Below are positions 1,661 to 23,673 of a stretch of DNA of 64,000 bases, in pieces (the first letter of the stretch is position 1; every line of letters starts with the position of its first letter). A model generated the notes under the pieces. It was not told the origin of the DNA and ran no database searches. It saw only the letters and a program-made list of their open reading frames with translations. The translations under genes and the position numbers were made by a program. Source of the DNA: an uncultured Nitrososphaerota archaeon (GTDB lineage: Archaea > Thermoproteota > Nitrososphaeria > Nitrososphaerales > Nitrosopumilaceae); the NCBI GenBank assembly GCA_963824385.1, contig CAWGPD010000001.1:1-64000 (forward strand), written 5' to 3'.

Positions 1661-3888
1661 TCATTCTTTTTCTACTGACAAAACAGCTTTACGGATTTTG
1701 TTGACTGCGTCCATATTACATGAGATACTCTTTATCCCCCACTTGACAAGCTGTTTTACCATTTCGGGATTACTCCCAGCTTCGCCACATATCGAACTCT
1801 CTACATCATACTTGTTACAAATATCAATTACATGATGAAGCATATACAAAACAGATGGATGAAATTCAGAATGCAACTTTGCAATCTTTGCATTGTTTCT
1901 GTCAATTCCTAAGGTGAGCATAGTTAGATCATTTGTTCCAAAACTTGCAAAGTCAATTCCTTCCTTGCAAAACTCTTCTATTGATAACGCACAGGCCGGA
2001 GTTTCAACCATTATTCCCAAATCAAAATTGTTTCCCATTTCAATTTTATTAGCAATCTCTTTTGCCTTTCTAAATTCATCAACTGAGATTAAAAATGGAA
2101 GCATCACATGAATATTATCTAGTCCTTCTGCGCGCATTCTCTTTATTGCTTCAAATTCTGTTTTTAGTAATTCAGGTTCATCCAGACTCCTTCTGATTCC
2201 GTGCCATCCAAGCATTGGATTATCTTCATGGGGTTCTGCATCTCCACCTTCCAGATTTCTAAACTCGTCACTTCTTGCATCCAAAGTTCTAACCCATACA
2301 GGTTTTGGATAAAATTTAGTAGCTATTGGTTTTATTCCGTTTGTCAAAATCGTGATATATTCCTCAGATCTACCTTCACGAACAAGTTTTGCAGGATGTA
2401 TTCCAGATTTAGTTACCATGTGTTCTATTCGTAGCAATCCAACACCGTCTGTTCTTGAAGCAACCTCCATCTTGTCTGCAAAAACAAGATTCACCTTTAC
2501 TTTGGTTTTGGTTTTTTCAACCTGTACTGGCTCACTTGTTTTGGTCTTATTGATAGAAACTGTTCCCTCGTAAACTATACCGGCATATGCGTCCACAGTA
2601 ACAATTTGCCCATCTTTCAAAATAGTTGTTCCATTTCCAGTCCCTACGATAGCTGGCAATCCCATCTCACGTGATACAATAGCAGCATGAGATGTGGCAC
2701 CTCCAAGATCCGTTATAATTGCAGCAGACTTGCTCATCTTTGGAACAAGATCTGGCGAGGTCATGGTGGTGACAAGTATATCGCCCTCCTCAATCTTTCC
2801 AATCTCGCTAATGTTTTTTACAATCTTTACTTTGCCAGTTGCAATTCCAGGAGATGCACCCATACCCTGCAATATTTTGACTCCTGTCATCTCACCTTCA
2901 CTTGTCTTTGCCTTTGTTGTAACAGGTCTTGTCTGGACAATTCTCATGTTGTACTGTTCGATTGCAAATTCTACATCTTGTGGTTTTCCATAATACTCTT
3001 CGAGTTGTCTACCATACTTTACCAGTTTAGAAATCTCATCATCGGTTAGAACTTGAGCATTAATTTTTTCAGCAGATATTTTTACCTGAATTGATTTACC
3101 AGTGGTATGATCTCGAACCAATGCAATTGGTTTTTGACCAATTTTTTTCTCTAAAACTTTACCTGTTTTATCCACCATGTAATGATCAGGTGAGACCTCG
3201 CCCAGTACAAGATATTCTCCCAAACCCCAGATAGATTCTATTATCATGACATTTTCTCCCGAGACAGGATCTTACAGTAAACATAACACCAGACTTGTCA
3301 GAGTTTACCATTCTTTGTACAACAACTGCTATGCTTGGGTTTTTGAAATTGTTCTTTGCCCTATAAAAAATGGCACGTGGTTCATAAAGAGAAGCCCAGC
3401 ATTCCTGTACTGATTTAACAAGATTTGCTGCGTGTTTTATATTTAGAAAGCTTGCCTGTTGTCCAGCAAATGATGTTCCAGGCAAGTCTTCTGCTGTGGC
3501 AGAACTTCTAACTGCAACAAACTCATCATCATCTTCAGTCAAATTAGTCTTGGATTTATTGTCTACATGAGATAGTTTCTTGTAAGAATCTATGATTTCA
3601 TTCTTTATTTCGCTTGGAAATTCTAGTGAAATAATTAGTTTCTTAATTTTCTTGGAGGTAGACATTAACATGTTAGTATCCTCAACATTGAGCACCTCTA
3701 ACATCATCTTGATTTTATCTGAAATATTATGAAACTGGATTAATCTTTCAAATGCAGTCTGTAGTTATAACAAATCCAGATGGAACTGGCAAGCCGATTC
3801 TAATCATTTCTCCCATGTTTGCACCCTTGCCACCTGCAATTGGGATGTCATCCTTTGTTACTTCTTCAAGCCAGCGAATGTATTTCAT
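1661..3888 (-). CDS. ppsA: Phosphoenolpyruvate synthase (pyruvate,water dikinase), two frameshifts (~3750, ~3265)
   Basis: N-term [29 protein letters not shown], phospho-His [11 protein letters not shown]-terminal [18 protein letters not shown]. Confidence 0.9.
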
Positions 3889-7764: not shown

Positions 7765-9105
7765 GTGGTTCTAATGACATTGTCACTTTCGTTTCCTATC
7801 ATTCCATTTAACAAGATGTTCGAGTCCAATCCATATTATGATTACATGTTAAAGGGGTTTGAATTTGCGGTAAAATACAATTCCGCACTTGTAGACGCAG
7901 ACTCAAAGGCATTTGAGACTTTTTTTAGTACAAGGAACGGAACGGCGCAGAACATAAGAAAAACTATCAGATCTTCCTTTGATGTTACGCTACGAGATGA
8001 TCTAAACGATGATGCACTGGCATCAAGTATGACAGACTATGTCGAAGCTTGGACAAAAATATGTGATCTTTTTGGATTTAGTCAATTTACTGCCAATTCC
8101 TATGACCTCTTCTCTTATGCAAACAGAATGCTTGAACCGTTAAGAGACAACGTCAACCGAACACCATCTGAGGTCATAGAGATGAAAGGTAGATTCAATC
8201 TGCTCCATTACAAATCAGACCTTCCAGTAGTACACAAAACCCCTCTGCTTGTAGTAGGCTCGCTTATCAACAGATACTACATCTTGGATTTGTTGCCTAA
8301 TGTAAGCATAATAAAAAATCTCCAAAGACAAGGCTTTGATATTTATGCAACGGATTGGGGAACCCCCAAGTCATTTGACAAGGACTTGACACTTGAAACA
8401 TATGCAGAAGAATATGTAGAAAATGCAGTAGAAAAAGTCAAGGAAGTAACAGGTTCTGACAAGGTGTCACTATTGGGATACTGTTGGGGAGGAATTTTTG
8501 CGCTAATCTATTCATCTACACATCAAGAGAATGTCAAGAATTTAATTTTGCATGCCACCCCAGTTGATATTAACAAGGAAAAGACGATAATAGAAAATTG
8601 GACTGCTCATCTCAATGCAGGCAATCTTGTTGACACATTTGGCAATATACCAGGATGGCTCATCAACCTTGCATTTCTCTTACGTGATCCAGTGCAAACA
8701 ATACTAAAGTATCCAAGATATTTCAGTGAACCCCGAAGCCGTGATGAGATTACACAGTTTTTTGCAATTGAGACGTGGCTATACGACAGTACGCCAATAA
8801 TAGGAGGAGTATATCGCGAGATAATCAATCAAGTATATAGAAAAAACCTTTTGATAAAAAATGAGATGAAAGTAGGTCCAGATATTATAAATTTAAAAAA
8901 TATTACAATACCGATTCTTGACATAGTTGGGACCAGTGATAATCTGGTGCCCCCATCAGCAAGCACGTCAGTAATTGATGCAATAGGTAGTACTGACAAA
9001 AAACTAATTGAATTTCCAACAGGGCACGTTGGTTTATGTGTAAGCACTGCCGCACATGAGAAATTATGGCCCGAAGTTGGAAAGTGGCTTGCCCAAAGAT
9101 CCTAG
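7765..9105 (+). CDS. phaC: Class III-type PHA synthase with N-terminal helical extension
   Basis: SLINRYYILDL, lipase box GYCWGG, catalytic Asp (SDNLVP) and His (TGHVG). Confidence 0.85.
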   Translation: MVLMTLSLSFPIIPFNKMFESNPYYDYMLKGFEFAVKYNSALVDADSKAFETFFSTRNGTAQNIRKTIRSSFDVTLRDDLNDDALASSMTDYVEAWTKICDLFGFSQFTANSYDLFSYANRMLEPLRDNVNRTPSEVIEMKGRFNLLHYKSDLPVVHKTPLLVVGSLINRYYILDLLPNVSIIKNLQRQGFDIYATDWGTPKSFDKDLTLETYAEEYVENAVEKVKEVTGSDKVSLLGYCWGGIFALIYSSTHQENVKNLILHATPVDINKEKTIIENWTAHLNAGNLVDTFGNIPGWLINLAFLLRDPVQTILKYPRYFSEPRSRDEITQFFAIETWLYDSTPIIGGVYREIINQVYRKNLLIKNEMKVGPDIINLKNITIPILDIVGTSDNLVPPSASTSVIDAIGSTDKKLIEFPTGHVGLCVSTAAHEKLWPEVGKWLAQRS

Positions 9106-9170
9106 ATTCTATAATTTCCAATTCAAGGTTAATGATTTTCATTCAAGAGATTAGTAGTACATCATTTACT

Positions 9171-9998
9171 TTATTGTAAAATCTGTCTTGAAAGACTCTG
9201 TAGTCTTTCTAGTCTTTGGAAGGATATTCCAGTTTTATTAGACAACAGACCCAAATTTGCTTTTACCAAGTCTCTAATTAACATCATATCATTTCTTGCA
9301 AAAGACGCAAGTTCAAATTTGTTTAATCCAAGAATTGTAATGGGATATAGACCCTTTTCTTCAATCATCATTTCAAGACTTTTCTCTGGAGGATATCGCC
9401 AAGAAATTATTTTCTGACCTATGCACTGGGCATATGTTCGCGCATCATCAGATAATTTCGTATTACATATCAACATCTCATGTTGGTATTTATCTTCAAG
9501 ATCTAAAAATCTTGCATGAGTATACAATGATTCTTTGAGTCCAGTATACAATCCAGATTGATTATGATATTTACATTCAATTAGATATTTTTCTCCGCTA
9601 GAAACAAGTTCTGTAATGAGATCAATTTCATGATGTACACATTTACCTTGCACTATGGCCCTAATTGACAAAACATCATGACCGTAGGCACCAAGAATTT
9701 CGCCCACATACGTCTCAAAGCTATACCCCGCAGGCCCCATTCTCATGATGGATTCTTTCAAACGATACTTGTGTCGAATGATAGTGCCCTCATCTTCAAT
9801 TTTTAGAGAATTTAGAACCATTTTGTAAATTTCAGATGTATTCATGTCATCGTATACCTTCTGAGATATCCTATCAGCTATTCTCTTTGCAGCCTTTCTG
9901 CTTGCACCAGCCCTGAGGCATGTCTCTCGCAGTTTGAATTTGTTAAATGGTACTCGTGCACCGTTTGCTTTTATAATCCAGACGGTTTTTTGGCTCAC
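9171..9998 (-). CDS. ATP-cone + Mrr-like PD-(D/E)xK nuclease-fold protein
   Basis: WIIKANG.RVPF...KL...RAGA ATP cone; GYSFE, HEID, IECKYH; GTG start at 9998 preferred over 10076. Confidence 0.8.
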   Translation of the reverse strand: MSQKTVWIIKANGARVPFNKFKLRETCLRAGASRKAAKRIADRISQKVYDDMNTSEIYKMVLNSLKIEDEGTIIRHKYRLKESIMRMGPAGYSFETYVGEILGAYGHDVLSIRAIVQGKCVHHEIDLITELVSSGEKYLIECKYHNQSGLYTGLKESLYTHARFLDLEDKYQHEMLICNTKLSDDARTYAQCIGQKIISWRYPPEKSLEMMIEEKGLYPITILGLNKFELASFARNDMMLIRDLVKANLGLLSNKTGISFQRLERLQSLSRQILQ

Positions 9999-10069
9999 GA
10001 TGAGAAAGTCAAACTCTAGTTGTAAAAAGTTATCTGAGTATTCCAGAATACTTGGATATCTAAGGTTTA

Positions 10070-10085
10070 CAATCAAAGATGAAAA
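10070..10085. promoter_or_regulatory. Degenerate TTATCA-N4-TGATAA site upstream of AMP phosphorylase operon
   Basis: CAATCAAAGATGAAAA ~12 nt before TATA-like GATATAT. Confidence 0.4.
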
Positions 10086-10130
10086 TTGTACTCAAATGAT
10101 ATATCCTACAGAAAATAGAAAAATCTTGAA

Positions 10131-11675
10131 ATGCAATTAAAAGTTGACATCGTAGGGATAGAATCAGGAGGAAAACCAATAGTTTTCCTAAATAAACATG
10201 ATGCCGACGAGGTCGGTGTTACTGCATTAGGAAGAATCATAATAAATTCAAAAAGAAAAGAGACAACTGCCATTGTTAATATTTCTACAACTCATGTCAA
10301 GAAAGGTTACATCGGTGTAAATGACGAGGTAAGAAAAAAACTTAATACTTAGACAAAACTCCGTAGTAGAAGTTGAAGTTGCAACATTTCCAAAATCACT
10401 CCAATTCATACATCATAAATTAACAGGAAAAAGTTTGCTCTACCATGAAATTTTAGAAATAGTAAAAGACGTGGTTGAAGGAAATCTCAATGACGGAGAG
10501 ATTGCAGCATTTGTCACTGCACTTCACATGCAAGGGCTTGATCTTGATGAAGCAGTAAGTCTATCATCTGCCATGGTGGCAACAGGAAAACAATTGAATT
10601 TACACAAAAAAATAATTGCAGACAAGCATAGCATTGGCGGAGTACCTGGAGACAAGACAACTCTATTGGTCGTGCCAATTGTGGCAGCTGCAGGAATAAC
10701 AATTCCAAAAGCATCGTCAAGGGCAATTACGTCCGCTGCTGGTACTGCAGATAGAGCAGAGGCAATAATGCCAGTAAACTTTGGAATTGAAGAAATGCAA
10801 TCCATTGTAAAAAAATGTAACGGGTGTATTGTGTGGGGAGGCTCACTAGAACTTGCTCCTGCCGATGACATTTTTGTCAGAACAGAATATTCTTTATACA
10901 TTGACCCACTTCTCTTGCCTTCGATTATGAGTAAAAAGAAATCAGTGGGTGCAACTCATCTCATAATAGACATACCTACAGGAAGAGGAGCAAAGGTCAA
11001 GACAATAGATGACGCAGATTTCTTGGCAAAGGAACTCATAGAACTTGGAAGAAAACTTGGCATACATACCCAATGTATTTTAACGCATGGAGAGATGCCA
11101 GTTGGATACACATTGGGCGCAGCTTCGAGGCAAGAGAGGCACTTTCCGTATTGATGAACAAGTCCAACGTTCCTGATTTAATAGACAAGGCATGTCACCT
11201 TGCAGGTTCATTATTTGAGATGACAGGAAAAAGTAATGGGTATCATCTAGCAAAGGAAATTCTGCGTACTGGCAAGGCAGAAAAGAAAATGAGAGAGATA
11301 ATCGATTTGCAGGGTGGAAATCCTAGAATGAATCTTGATGATTTTCAAATTGGTCAAGAGGTAAAAACTGTAAAATCTAAAAAATCAGGTCAAGTTCTAT
11401 GGATGGACAACATATCACTTGTAGAAATAGCAGAGAGCCGCAGGTTCTCCAAAAGACAAGGGGGCGGGAATCATACTTAACAAAAAAGAAGGTGACAAGG
11501 TAAAAATCGGAGACGTGTTGTTTACTATTTATGCAGAAAAATCGCGAAAGTTATCTAGTGTTGAAGAGTGCTATCAGAGTTAGAACCAATAGGCGTTGGA
11601 GAAAGAAAAGAGATGTTAATACACAAGGTAAAAGAATCACCACTTGTCAAAAGGGCTTTTGTAATAGATAGATAA
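10131..11675 (+). CDS. AMP phosphorylase (thymidine phosphorylase family), several frameshifts
   Basis: N-terminal beta domain, [39 protein letters not shown]-terminal PKDKGAGI; upstream of R15P isomerase and RuBisCO. Confidence 0.9.
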
Positions 11676-11680
11676 AAAAT

Positions 11681-12526
11681 ATGAACTCTCTTCAAAAAAC
11701 CATCAAAGATATACAAAAAATTAATATCCAAGGAGCAAATGAGATTGCAATTTACAGTCTTGGTTTTTTAAAACAATATGTCAAACAGCATGGTGTTGGA
11801 AATGATTTTGAAACTGTTGCAAAGAAATTAGAAAAAGTACGCCCAACTGCTGTAGTTTTACACAATTGTCTTGAAATTCTAAAGAAAGAGAGAAAAATAT
11901 CCACAATAGACAAGATGATAAAAAATCTCAATACTGCAAGAGAGAAAGAATCAAAATATTCAGACAGGATTATTCATTCTCAAAGTGTGATAATGACATA
12001 TTGTCATTCCGGAGAAGCCATGTCATTTATCAAACATTTTTGGAAAAAACACAAGAAAATCTCTGTAATTGCATGCCTGACTGAACCTAAACATCAAGGA
12101 GTTCGCACAGCAAAAGAGATGTCTTCAAGCGGCATACCAGTTACCCTGATAAATGATAATGCAATTGGGCATTTCATCAATGGTGTCGATATGGTCATAG
12201 TTGGTGCAGATGCACTCAGACTAGAAGGAGTTGTAAACAAGATAGGAACTAGACTTTTAGCAACTGCTGCATCAAGTGCTCACAAGCCATTTTACGTAGT
12301 TGCAAACTCTCTCAAGCTTGATACAAGAGAGAATTTCAAAATCGAAGAAAAATCTAGCCGAGAAATTTTTAGAAAAGCACTCGACAAAGGAAAAATTAAA
12401 GGAATCAGTATACGAAACCCTGCCTTTGATGTCACTCCATGGGAATTAGTAACATCGGTTATCACTGAACGCGGAATAATATTACCAGGGAAGATAAAAA
12501 AGGAATTATTATATGAAAAAAATTGA
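11681..12526 (+). CDS. Ribose-1,5-bisphosphate isomerase (eIF2B-like family)
   Basis: IQGA, RPTA, TYCHS (catalytic Cys), GAD (catalytic Asp), NKIGT, NPAFDVTP; operon context. Confidence 0.85.
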   Translation: MNSLQKTIKDIQKINIQGANEIAIYSLGFLKQYVKQHGVGNDFETVAKKLEKVRPTAVVLHNCLEILKKERKISTIDKMIKNLNTAREKESKYSDRIIHSQSVIMTYCHSGEAMSFIKHFWKKHKKISVIACLTEPKHQGVRTAKEMSSSGIPVTLINDNAIGHFINGVDMVIVGADALRLEGVVNKIGTRLLATAASSAHKPFYVVANSLKLDTRENFKIEEKSSREIFRKALDKGKIKGISIRNPAFDVTPWELVTSVITERGIILPGKIKKELLYEKN

Positions 12527-13820
12527 TTGGTATTCAGATTTTGTAGATTTAAGATTTAGACCGTCAAAGACTGATATTGTTTGCCTATTCAGATTTGAAC
12601 CTGCCAGAGGCATTTCTGTCAAGGAAGCTGCTGGCAGAATCGCATCAGAGAGTTCTGCAGGAACTTGGACTACATTAACCAGAGTTCCATCCAGACTGGA
12701 TAAAATGATGGCAAAATCTTTTGAAATAAAAGGAAATTTTGTTAAAGTTTCATATCCAATTGACTTGTGGGAGGAAGGCAATGCATCGCAACTGTTGAGC
12801 GGAATTGCAGGAAACATCTTTGGCATGAAGGCTTTGAAAAATCTAAGACTTGTTGATGTCTCTCTTCCCAAAACATATCTCAAGTATTTTAGAGGTCCAC
12901 AGTTTGGAATTGATGGCATTAGAAAACTCTTGAAAATAAAAAACAGACCAATAACAGGCGCTGTAGCAAAACCAAAGATTGGCTGGAGTGCAAGTGAGCA
13001 TGCCAAGATATCTTATGAGACATGGATGGGGGGATTTGACTTGGTCAAAGATGACGAGAATCTTACCTCAACTTCATTTAACAGATTTGAAGACAGAATT
13101 AGACTATGCGCAAAAATGCGAGACAAGGCAGAAAAAGAGACAGGTCAGAGAAAATCTGCACTAATCAACATAACTGGCGAGACAAAACTTATGGAAAAAC
13201 GAGCCAAGATGTTACACGAACTTGGATGGGAGTATGCAATGATAGACGTGGTAACTGTGGGGGTATCTGCAGTGCAGACATTACGTGAGGTGTGTCAGGA
13301 TTATGGACTAGCAATTCATGCGCATCGTGCCATGCATGCCGCTTTTGACAGAAATCCAAGACATGGAATCACAATGCTAGTTCTTGCAAAGATAATGAGG
13401 ATGATTGGAGTTGATCAGATACACATTGGAACAATAGTAGGCAAATTGGTTGGAAGTAAAGATGAAGTTCTTGACATTAAAGATGAGATTACAACCAAGA
13501 CAATATTTGAAAAAAATCTCAGAGGAAGCACCAAGATACTTTCTCAGGACTGGGCAGATTTTAAACCAGTATTGCCCATCTCGTCAGGTGGACTACATCC
13601 AGGTTTACTGCCATCTGTTATGAATATTCTTGGAGACGATATTGGCCTACTAGTAAGCGGAGGAATTCATGGTCATCCCCAAGGAACTAGATCTGGTGCA
13701 AAGGCTGCAATGCAAGCAATAGAGGCAGCCATGCAAGAAATTCCATTACAGACATATGCAAAAACTCATCTTGAATTAAAGCAATCACTTGACAAATGGG
13801 GCTTTAGAAAACCAAAATAA
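12513..13820 (+). CDS. rbcL: RuBisCO large subunit, form III-type, intact
   Basis: ASESSAGTWT, AGN, KPK, DLVKDDE, HAHRAMH, loop-6 VGKL, SSGG, SGGIHGH all present; no rbcS nearby. Confidence 0.95.
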   Translation: MKKIDWYSDFVDLRFRPSKTDIVCLFRFEPARGISVKEAAGRIASESSAGTWTTLTRVPSRLDKMMAKSFEIKGNFVKVSYPIDLWEEGNASQLLSGIAGNIFGMKALKNLRLVDVSLPKTYLKYFRGPQFGIDGIRKLLKIKNRPITGAVAKPKIGWSASEHAKISYETWMGGFDLVKDDENLTSTSFNRFEDRIRLCAKMRDKAEKETGQRKSALINITGETKLMEKRAKMLHELGWEYAMIDVVTVGVSAVQTLREVCQDYGLAIHAHRAMHAAFDRNPRHGITMLVLAKIMRMIGVDQIHIGTIVGKLVGSKDEVLDIKDEITTKTIFEKNLRGSTKILSQDWADFKPVLPISSGGLHPGLLPSVMNILGDDIGLLVSGGIHGHPQGTRSGAKAAMQAIEAAMQEIPLQTYAKTHLELKQSLDKWGFRKPK

Positions 13821-13856
13821 GATATGCCCAGTCAAATAAAAAATTGAATTGATTGA

Positions 13857-13872
13857 TTATCACATGTGATAT
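13857..13872. promoter_or_regulatory. TTATCA-N4-TGATAA operator (1 mismatch)
   Basis: TTATCACATGTGATAT upstream of CBS gene. Confidence 0.65.
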
Positions 13873-13914
13873 TTAATCGATCAAGTAAAATACCGTGAAT
13901 TATAGACAACATTC

Positions 13915-14681
13915 ATGGGATCGAAGATAGACGAACTTGTAGTTGGCAATTACATGTCAGAGTATCCCATATCTGTCAAGCCAGAAATTCCATTTGAAAC
14001 GGTTGTTGATTTTATGAATGAGAGTAAATTTTCAACATTAATTGTCATGGATGAGACAAATGCATTACCTATTGGGGTTTTTACAGAAAGAGGAATCATC
14101 AAGCATGTGGCATCTGGTAAAGCTGATGAACCAAAGCATCAAACAAGAACTAATCCAGCCATTTTTTTCAGTCACTCCAGACACTACTATAATTGAGGCT
14201 GCAAAATTGATGATATCGAAAAAGGCAAGAATTTTGGTATTTGCAGATACAGACAAACTAATTGGAACTATAACAGCATCTGACATGCTAAGAGCATTTA
14301 GCGAAACAGACAGAACCTCCTAGCCTTGAGAAAGTGATTAGTAAGACAGTTTATCATTGTCCATTTGAAACCACGATTTTAGATGCAGTAAAACTCCTCG
14401 ATGAAAAAAACATCGGCAGCATACTAGTAACACGTGATTCATTGCATGGCATATTTACACAAAGAGATCTGGTCAGAGTTCTTGCAAAGGGAGAAAAACT
14501 GGATAGTAATGTAGGGGACTATTCTTCATTTCCACTTGTTACCGCAAAAAAATATATTTTGGCAAATGAGGCTGCAAAGATAATGACATCAAAGAAGATC
14601 AAAAGATTAGGTTTGACAGAGAACAATTCTGTTGTGGGAATTGTTACTGCAAGAGATGTTGTTGACGCATATCAGATGTAG
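13915..14681 (+). CDS. Four-CBS-domain protein (frameshifted into three ORFs)
   Basis: GVFTERGI, GTITASDM, GIFTQRDL, GIVTARDV CBS motifs. Confidence 0.8.
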
Positions 14682-14777
14682 ATGTTTGTATCACACTAGA
14701 AATAATTCAATTTTTGTGCCAAAGTTAATTGGCAATGATGAGGTATCTTTAATGGCTAGGATGCCGTAATGATATAG

Positions 14778-15274
14778 ATGTCAAAGGAAACACTGGAAAG
14801 CATTGCAACAATTGAAAATGTAACAAAAAAACAAGTGGTGGATGCAATCAAGAATAACAAAAAGGAACAGGATTTGTCAGAACAAAAAACAACTACACCT
14901 AGCATCATAAAAGACAACACTTTAGAGATAATTGAAAAGATTGATTCTAAAATTCCAACATATGTTAAACTTTATTCCGACCTGTACAAAAAATACCTAC
15001 ACATGACAAGTGATTTCTGCACCGCCTCATATTCTACTCAAAAAAAGAGCTCTTTGGTAAGATGGGAGTAAATGATATGCGACTTGAAATGTTTGATGTC
15101 TATTTGGAATCTGTCAAAAAAATGATTCTACTTCAAATAGACATAAACGAAAACATGATCCAGTCCTATGTAGGTCAAAGGCTTACAGTATTGGAATTTT
15201 ATCAACAGACTATGAATAGAAACATTAACAATTTTTCAAAGATGTTCTCGTGGTTTAACGAGTACAAGAAATAG
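14778..15274 (+). CDS. Helical hypothetical protein (frameshift ~15050), possibly phasin-like
   Basis: Two abutting ORFs, amphipathic helical pattern. Confidence 0.55.
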
Positions 15275-23128: not shown

Positions 23129-23673
23129 ATGAGAAGAATACTTGTGTTGTTTGACTTTTTCTACCTAGTATCAGAACTCAAAAAAGTACCACGTAAGGGA
23201 TGGATAAGCAAAGTAGGCATAGAGCATCCAGAATCAGTAGCAGACCACTCTTACGGAACTGCAATCATGGCAATGGTTTTGTCAGACTCTCAAAAATTAA
23301 ACACAGAAAAGATTCTCAAAATGGCGCTTCTTCATGATTTGGCAGAATCAATTACGGGGGATTTTATGCCAGATGAGATCTCAAAGGAGAACAAAAAAAT
23401 ATCTGAAGAGGAAGTTATGAAAGAGATCTTCTCCAGCTACCAGAAAATCTTGCAGTACAATATGATAAAGTATGGCAAGAGTTCATTCAAGCAGATACCA
23501 AAGAGTCCATTTTAGTACACGAAATTGACAAGTTAGAGATGGCAATCCAAGCTGCAAAATATTCTTCAGAAGGATTCTCAAATGAAAAATTAAGTTTGTT
23601 TGTAGACTCGGCAAAAAAAGAGATAAAATCAAAAGAACTTTTGGACATACTTGATACACTATCGTATAAATAA
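23129..23673 (+). CDS. HD-domain 5'-deoxynucleotidase-like protein (frameshift ~23435)
   Basis: R.GW, ESVADHSY, LHDLAE..TGD, downstream DKLE. Confidence 0.85.

Follow-up and report, generated by a model that had tools for sequence, protein, structure and literature searches.

The adenosine monophosphate (AMP) pathway, or pentose-bisphosphate pathway, of Thermococcus kodakarensis was reportedly described by Sato in 2007 and by Aono in 2012 and 2015, and in Thermococcus the genes of the pathway are dispersed. Here we examine a 64,000-nt stretch of DNA (positions 1 to 64,000 of contig CAWGPD010000001.1, assembly GCA_963824385.1; hereafter the window) from an uncultured Nitrososphaerota archaeon of the family Nitrosopumilaceae, in which the same three enzyme families are encoded by closely linked, co-directional genes at positions 10131-13820, in the order AMP phosphorylase, e2b2-family isomerase and form III RuBisCO. 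A reading of this DNA from its letters alone (the sequence-only reading) had placed the trio here and had assigned it to the AMP pathway. Both statements hold, as all three families give profile matches and the motifs are kept. Judging from its gene content and relatives, the locus is very probably an intact accessory AMP pathway operon in an ammonia oxidiser of the genus Nitrosotalea. The resemblance to T. kodakarensis extends to scores of 422-425 bits between the RuBisCO and structures 1geh, 3a12 and 3kdn, and of 128.7 bits between the isomerase and 3a11, with the Cys/Asp pair kept. The locus departs from that system in its mesophilic, aerobic, ammonia-oxidising host, in the joining of the three genes into one operon, and in an isomerase that is about 40 residues shorter and falls below the equivalog cut-off.

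The closest described system is that of Candidatus Nitrosotalea bavarica SbT1, an ammonia oxidiser in which, according to passages of the report, an archaeal type III RuBisCO adjoins AMP phosphorylase, phosphoribulokinase is missing, and a role in AMP salvage was proposed (Herbold et al., 2017; PMC5767755). The window shares each of these features, including the Nitrosotalea label. The same passages call the trait species-specific, point to an MJ0601-type isomerase encoded elsewhere, and name no e2b2 gene in the cluster (PMC5767755), whereas in the window an e2b2 isomerase lies between the two genes and the operon recurs in 19 of 62 genus-mates. In the part of their preprint that concerns it, Reji and Francis (bioRxiv 2019.12.22.886556) count the SbT1 RuBisCO among the previously reported thaumarchaeal RuBisCOs, and in the literature searched we found no wider reports of the trait beyond these two papers. 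Thus, the operon is real and ordinary, and has been known for Nitrosotalea since 2017. The expectation of the sequence-only reading that RuBisCO in this phylum belongs to basal lineages outside the ammonia oxidisers is out of date, given the 2017 report on SbT1 (PMC5767755) and the presence of the enzyme in these genus-mates and in two further ammonia-oxidiser genera.

The three genes are tightly packed. The AMP phosphorylase stop codon (11673-11675) precedes the isomerase ATG at 11681 by 5 nt, and the isomerase gene overlaps the start of the RuBisCO gene by 14 nt. The latter gene (12513-13820, forward strand) encodes a 435-aa large subunit of form III, III-b-like type, which scores 587.4 bits against the form III model TIGR03326 (cut-off 497.45) and 496 bits against PDB 2cwx, in an alignment that runs through the catalytic motifs. 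True RuBisCOs are set apart from form IV proteins by KPK, the carbamylated Lys in KDDE, HxHR, the loop-6 Lys, SGG and GG. Every motif cited in the sequence-only reading is present: the first half of the protein contains ESSAGTW (46-52), GNIFG (100-104), KPK (153-155) and KDDE (179-182), and the second half contains HAHRAMH (269-275), IHIGTIVGK (303-311), SGG (358-360) and SGGIHGHP (382-389), with the key residues invariant across 19 family-mate sequences. The concern that the protein might instead group with form IV was not borne out, as its TIGR03326 score exceeds the cut-off and the form III motifs are complete; by these signatures it is a form III RuBisCO, and carboxylase activity is predicted. 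Its III-b subgroup is indicated by membership of a 67-row clade (support 100) together with P0073 and P0117, both labelled 'Form III-b', in a comparison where other RuBisCO forms are represented solely by the class's own divergent sequences.

The middle gene (11681-12526, forward strand) encodes a short e2b2/IF-2B-family protein of 281 aa, which is most likely a ribose-1,5-bisphosphate isomerase because of its genomic context, its best solved relatives and its Cys/Asp pair. In every relative and lineage examined, the gene lies directly upstream of RuBisCO. The best solved relatives are two ribose-1,5-bisphosphate isomerases, 3a11 (128.7 bits) and 5yfj (121 bits), with other structures at no more than 96.5 bits, a modest margin. 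In the alignment with 3a11, Cys108 and Asp177 occupy the places of the catalytic residues (149 and 218 of the chain), confirming a point made in the sequence-only reading, and the aligned Cys is the residue changed to Ser in entry 3vm6; we take the catalytic roles of this pair to be those of the T. kodakarensis residues. The best equivalog is TIGR00511 (ribose-1,5-bisphosphate isomerase), at 193 bits versus 138 bits for the methylthioribose-1-phosphate isomerase equivalog, and the genome's other paralogue shows the reverse preference (200 versus 356 bits). In addition, many relatives of about 277 aa carry the source name ribose 1,5-bisphosphate isomerase.

Several points weigh against this assignment and would favor an alternative in which the e2b2 protein has a different reaction and the cluster acts otherwise, for example on another sugar phosphate. 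The TIGR00511 score lies below the cut-off of 314.1, as do those of all four relatives scored (196.9, 180.7, 176.2 and 214.4 bits); a general eIF-2B-related model scores almost as high; the protein is shorter than the solved isomerases by the roughly 40 residues mentioned above; and methylthioribose-1-phosphate isomerases share the Cys/Asp pair. Nevertheless, the contrasting scores of the two paralogues, the identity of the best solved relatives and the constant union with RuBisCO make this alternative unlikely, and ribose-1,5-bisphosphate isomerase is the assignment that we retain.

The first gene (10131-11675, forward strand) encodes the DeoA-like AMP phosphorylase, whose integrity required closer scrutiny. 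In the window as assembled, the reading frame is broken at four places (10347, 11124/5, 11433 and 11568/9). The pieces at 10131-10352, 10435-11154 and 11073-11480 match TIGR03327 positions 1-70, 103-331 and 327-439, and two further frames run on to the stop at 11673-11675. Scored separately, the pieces reach 39.6, 320.8 and 100.1 bits, each short of the whole-protein cut-off of 535, which orthologues 88% and 72% identical exceed with 566.1 and 568 bits, respectively. The sequence-only reading had allowed that the gene might be a pseudogene and had called for a check against polished reads. We compared contigs from four public sequencing runs, each from a different study (X1, X2, X6 and X8), with window positions 9000-15000, and found six single-base indels in all. 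At 10347 all four runs omit one base; at 11124 all four add a C; at 11433 the three covering runs omit one base; and at 11568 the three covering runs add either a C (X1, X2) or an A (X6). These four indels coincide exactly with the breaks in the AMP phosphorylase gene. The other two, at 14125 (one base omitted in 3/3 runs) and 14313 (one base omitted in 4/4 runs), coincide with breaks in the neighboring CBS-domain gene (13915-14681, forward strand), whose CBS matches are spread over three open reading frame (ORF) pieces.

When the four indels are applied to the window, they yield a single 514-aa ORF, and AMP phosphorylase is then present as one frame of about 500 aa that includes the N-terminal extra domain, the first piece corresponding to profile positions 1-70. 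The frame-restoring states are shared by run X6, although its roughly 20 additional substitutions mark it as another strain. Six substitutions set the window apart from all runs, and four of these lie within 2-6 nt of an indel. Among 13 loci of relatives that hold any AMP phosphorylase, ten have one full-length match, two are split, and one is a deletion remnant. We conclude that the frameshifts are consensus errors of the assembly and that the gene is intact. Because the PPDK/PEP synthase gene (1661-3707, reverse strand) is likewise split, into two overlapping frames, and the genome is only 86% complete by markers, as against 95-99% in relatives, despite consisting of five contigs, these defects, together with the split CBS gene, probably reflect assembly-wide indel error. 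The operon or the ATP-cone gene described below also gives split matches in L021 (G344), L017/L037 (G356) and L016 (G245), which may be similar assembly error. A methylation-motif cause of the indels was considered and dropped, with a genome ratio for AGCT of 1.01 and GATC depleted equally here and in relatives (0.73 versus 0.72).

Were AMP phosphorylase truly a pseudogene, only the isomerase and RuBisCO would work, fed by ribose-1,5-bisphosphate derived from phosphoribosyl pyrophosphate (PRPP), whose breakdown is discussed as such a source in a passage of Herbold et al. (2017; PMC5767755). The four frameshifts in the assembled window and the loss of the operon from close relatives speak for this scenario. 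Two features of the runs also temper the read evidence for an intact gene: X2 may be the source sample and hence not independent, and X8 has no cover at 11412-11612 and in several other bins, so that it provides no data for 11433 and 11568. However, at each of the four sites every covering contig restores the frame, the same runs mend the two breaks in the CBS gene, PPDK is split in the same assembly, and the window-specific substitutions cluster near the indels. These observations render a pseudogene very unlikely, run X2 alone already going most of the way to refuting it, and an intact AMP phosphorylase is assumed in what follows. The apparent pseudogene is thus an assembly artifact, and the other split genes of this genome, such as PPDK and CBS, should be distrusted unless they have read support.

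We also asked whether the contig belongs to its genome, which comprises 1.68 Mb at 36% GC. Contig C3 of the same genome, distinct from that of the window, carries both an archaeal amoA (354.5 bits) and a 4-hydroxybutyryl-CoA dehydratase-like gene (HpaB_N, 320.5 bits), a marker of the 3-hydroxypropionate/4-hydroxybutyrate (3HP/4HB) cycle. These two markers place the genome among the ammonia-oxidising archaea, in agreement with the sequence-only reading. The RuBisCOs of genus-mates are identical to NCBI proteins labelled Candidatus Nitrosotalea sp., and a Nitrosotalea sp. record (L102) carries the same trio; these protein labels assign the ammonia-oxidising host to Nitrosotalea, an acid-soil genus. 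Mis-binning or a chimeric contig, with the operon derived from a DPANN archaeon or some other archaeon, would account for RuBisCO relatives outside the family that are labelled Aenigmarchaeota and Methanoperedens. Against this, the order PPDK, M50, HAD, PhaC, ATP-cone, operon, CBS, ABC recurs in independently assembled genus-mates, so that the operon lies between the same host genes. Read depth is even over 9000-15000, a single X2 contig spans this interval, and single contigs bridge the junctions in the runs of other studies. The operon's GC content of 0.381 (genome 0.359) and its GC at third codon positions (GC3) are host-like, and the AMP phosphorylase is of a kind typical of ammonia oxidisers. 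A foreign contig is therefore extremely unlikely. The contig is not chimeric, as shown by the recurring gene order, the even depth and the host-like GC and GC3, and the check across 9-14 kb that the sequence-only reading had called for revealed no chimera.

With gene identities, intactness, distribution and relationships observed directly, we infer the enzyme activities, transcription and physiological role as follows. AMP phosphorylase would use phosphate to cleave AMP, and probably also further nucleoside monophosphates, into the free base and ribose-1,5-bisphosphate; the e2b2 isomerase would convert ribose-1,5-bisphosphate into ribulose-1,5-bisphosphate; and the form III RuBisCO would combine the latter with CO2 and water to give two molecules of 3-phosphoglycerate, which would enter central metabolism. 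These steps follow the biochemistry established in T. kodakarensis. In the window, the three genes are predicted to be read from one promoter. As no phosphoribulokinase was found, the operon appears to serve the salvage of nucleotide ribose and not a Calvin cycle, with autotrophy remaining the task of the 3HP/4HB cycle. The best match to the phosphoribulokinase family (PF00485) scores 19.6 bits, below the 22-bit cut-off, and since the genome is 86% complete, the enzyme is to be regarded as not found rather than absent, a limit that detracts from the salvage interpretation. It must also be considered that RuBisCO in an aerobe would form 2-phosphoglycolate as well, which likewise sits uneasily with this role.

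Alternatively, the RuBisCO could support autotrophic CO2 fixation through a Calvin-like cycle or a reductive hexulose-phosphate cycle that would supplement or replace the 3HP/4HB cycle. Its catalytic residues are complete, and methanogens that possess form III-a RuBisCO and phosphoribulokinase are reported to run such a cycle (PMC5241800). Yet the family search for phosphoribulokinase gave no match above the cut-off, the genes for AMP phosphorylase and the isomerase stand in the same operon as that for RuBisCO, the genome carries a 3HP/4HB marker gene, and RuBisCO is missing from two thirds of the genus-mates, all of which are ammonia oxidisers by genus. We consider an autotrophic function extremely unlikely and favor nucleotide salvage.

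Form III-b, or nucleoside-pathway, RuBisCOs have been described in DPANN archaea and in bacteria of the CPR, as two reports indicate (PMC5113843, PMC6389311), and the RuBisCO of the window is related to enzymes of this kind. Its closest counterparts outside the family, labelled Form III-b, Aenigmarchaeota and Methanoperedens, are 67-70% identical and fall into the same clade (support 100); with unlabelled proteins included, the range is 67-76%. Identity to the RuBisCOs of other Nitrososphaeria families is 33-58%. In a FastTree analysis of 137 rows, which left out P0001 (identical to the window sequence) and the fragment P0044, all rows of the family fall within one 68-row clade (support 99). 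A quick likelihood tree of 85 rows, picked to represent clades, joins the family to the III-b/Aenigmarchaeota/Methanoperedens group (67 rows, support 100), with a genus of family f3 as sister (support 97), and places families f12, f13, f17 and f20 in a separate clade (support 97). The RuBisCO phylogeny suggested in the sequence-only reading thus puts the enzyme in the III-b group, apart from the basal Nitrososphaeria families. The family's RuBisCOs form one clade in the best likelihood tree, but with a support of only 52, so that they may stem from one acquisition or from several. Non-ammonia-oxidising Nitrososphaeria, namely the basal families and a heterotrophic marine lineage with form III-a, share with the window their class, a form III enzyme and the lack of phosphoribulokinase, and differ in that their RuBisCOs occupy other clades at the 33-58% identity given above. 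Among 12 RuBisCO loci from such organisms, one (L079, f18) has the isomerase and AMP phosphorylase alongside, and in none of the other 11 do they occur within about 5 kb.

For the isomerase, an Aenigmarchaeota-labelled relative is 58% identical, as close as the second group of Nitrosotalea. It is plausible on these grounds that RuBisCO and the isomerase were acquired laterally from a DPANN/Methanoperedens-type III-b pool. The AMP phosphorylase differs in this respect from the DPANN and CPR systems: of its 120 best relatives, the 16 that carry names are without exception from Nitrososphaerota, including Candidatus Nitrosotenuis sp. DW1 and Nitrosopumilus sp. b3, and the gene looks native to ammonia oxidisers. 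This pattern suggests modular assembly, in which an imported isomerase-RuBisCO pair was joined to a native AMP phosphorylase. The horizontally acquired module envisaged in the sequence-only reading accordingly survives for two genes, for which a foreign source is plausible, but the trio does not appear to be one imported block. Given the host-like composition and the divergence of about 30% between the two Nitrosotalea groups, the acquisition is judged to be old rather than recent.

The distribution of the trait was surveyed with TIGR03326. A search of 401 genomes of the family yielded RuBisCO in 19 of 62 genus-mates and, within a second genus (g17), in 3 of 31 genomes; the 307 genomes searched from the family's 25 remaining genera gave no match. 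A class-wide sample, also of 401 genomes, contained RuBisCO in 11 of 223 members of the window's family and 2 of 78 members of family f3 (their isomerases match proteins labelled Nitrososphaera sp. exactly), and in most genomes of several other families (f12, 8/9; f13, 8/14; f17, 16/17). We detected amoA in four of five RuBisCO-bearing genomes tested, which come from three genera. AMP phosphorylase (TIGR03327) occurs in 37 of the 223 family genomes, including genera that lack RuBisCO, and within the genus sample its distribution matches that of a whole RuBisCO, the same 10 genomes carrying both. Copies passing TIGR03327 are widespread in RuBisCO-less ammonia oxidisers (L197-L216), examples being those labelled Candidatus Nitrosotenuis sp. 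DW1 and Nitrosopumilus sp. b3. In 20 such loci, neither the isomerase nor RuBisCO was found within 4 kb of AMP phosphorylase.

The three genera that carry the trio arrange it differently. The Nitrosotalea order is AMP phosphorylase, isomerase, RuBisCO; in g17, isomerase and RuBisCO are followed by a convergent AMP phosphorylase; and in genus g36 of f3, the order is isomerase, RuBisCO, AMP phosphorylase, ATP-cone gene. In the g36 loci L072 and L073 all four genes lie on one strand, and both genomes contain amoA. L216, from a genus-mate, has AMP phosphorylase and the ATP-cone gene only. Among the closest relatives of the window, G344 possesses the full operon, and two others document different states of the locus. 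In G169 (L024/L029), residues 1-77 of AMP phosphorylase are fused to residues 226-432 of RuBisCO in a remnant that contains a TAG; the deletion corresponds approximately to window positions 10362-13179 and has an 11-nt overlap at the joint. G290 (L030) carries a clean empty site, with the ATP-cone gene adjoining the CBS gene and no operon between them, where the joint lies in an A-rich stretch similar at both edges of the operon, so that this site alone fits deletion or insertion equally. From these comparisons, the operon is patchily distributed, and close relatives are in the process of losing it.

A gene divergent from the operon (9171-9998, reverse strand) encodes a protein with an ATP-cone and an AF1548-like domain of the Mrr_cat, PD-(D/E)xK fold (Pfam: ATP-cone, 35.6 bits; AF1548-like_C, 37.9; Mrr_cat, 21.2; PDB 1y88, 134). 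The gene probably starts at GTG 9998 and not at TTG 10076, since relatives begin at the equivalent of 9998, and D126, E141 and K143 of the PD-(D/E)xK fold are invariant in 11 sequences. All 19 genus-mates with RuBisCO have it, as do 10 of the 43 without, counts that come from related genomes and are not independent samples. In the first Nitrosotalea group the gene is next to AMP phosphorylase; in the second it lies about 5 kb downstream; and in f3 it follows AMP phosphorylase immediately. Overall, the two genes adjoin in five arrangements, spanning Nitrosotalea, other Nitrosopumilaceae, Nitrososphaera-labelled genomes and Bathyarchaeia; the recurring neighborhood was seen at L072, L073, L154, L158, L204, L208 and L216. 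Of the 80 best ATP-cone-family loci in public genomes, 15 have a member of the trio within 8 kb, one arrangement being the Bathyarchaeia order isomerase, AMP phosphorylase, ATP-cone.

On the strength of these neighborhoods, the ATP-cone protein may be functionally linked to the operon. Other counts argue against such a link: the remaining 65 of the 80 loci have no trio gene within 8 kb; of 20 AMP phosphorylase loci from ammonia oxidisers without RuBisCO, six have the ATP-cone gene within 4 kb (adjacent in three) and 14 do not; and it occurs within 1.5 kb in none of 30 loci from basal families. We found no paper naming both 'ATP-cone' and 'AMP phosphorylase' in the literature searched. The five arrangements, together with trio orders that differ between lineages, lend support to a broader proposal, in which a III-b isomerase-RuBisCO pair was bolted onto a resident AMP phosphorylase in at least three ammonia-oxidiser lineages and the ATP-cone protein, a frequent partner of that phosphorylase, is an unrecognised fourth component. 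We put this proposal forward tentatively and consider it somewhat doubtful as a whole.

The divergent intergenic region measures 132 bp if the ATP-cone gene starts at GTG 9998. It contains a promoter-proximal element (10080-10104, forward strand) composed of TGAAAATT (10080-10087), an 11-nt spacer, and a TATA-like ATATAT (10099-10104) that lies 27 nt ahead of the ATG at 10131. Six close (group-A) loci keep AATCAAAGATGAAAATTGTACTCAAATGATATATCC, and six group-B loci keep TG[A/G]AAATTA, a spacer and ATATAT at equal distance. By its position and conservation, the element is a candidate TATA box with an upstream element that would form one promoter for all three genes, and its spacing would fit a leaderless or short-leader transcript. 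The sequence-only reading had proposed an operator-like site near 10070 that wires the operon into a stress regulon. A conserved promoter-proximal element does exist there, but no regulon was found: genome-wide, a relaxed composite motif gave 5 matches against 2.75 expected (shuffles, 0-8), which is no enrichment, and a strict version of it hit 3 sites, none ahead of an ORF, and missed the window's own site. The 16-mers of 10060-10130, allowing up to 2 mismatches, have scattered matches in the genome, and those inspected lie in coding sequence or show partial likeness. Wiring into a stress regulon is thus unsupported.

Other neighbors contribute little to the interpretation. The CBS-domain gene is a neighbor and not a part of the pathway. 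Two genes upstream of the operon lies a class III polyhydroxyalkanoate (PHA) synthase PhaC-like gene (7765-9105, forward strand), which scores 324.5 bits against TIGR01836, just under the cut-off of 365.3. Elsewhere in the window, an HD-domain ORF (23129-23515, forward strand) appears truncated, ending at profile position 98 of 165.

As a discovery the operon matters little, representing a textbook pathway that has been in print for an acidophilic ammonia oxidiser since 2017. The additions made here are modest, and consist of the e2b2 gene within the operon, the breadth and patchiness of its occurrence, the signs of modular assembly, and a candidate nucleotide-sensing partner. The module emerges as a recurrent accessory trait, carried by about one third of the Nitrosotalea species searched and by two other ammonia-oxidiser genera, with its loss caught in progress. 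On its own, AMP phosphorylase occurs widely among RuBisCO-less ammonia oxidisers. If the proposed fourth component is genuine, the ATP-cone protein might sense adenylates and regulate the promoter, or it might be a nuclease under ATP control that yields nucleoside monophosphates as the energy charge falls; in either case, it represents a testable candidate for tying the pathway to the energy charge of the cell.

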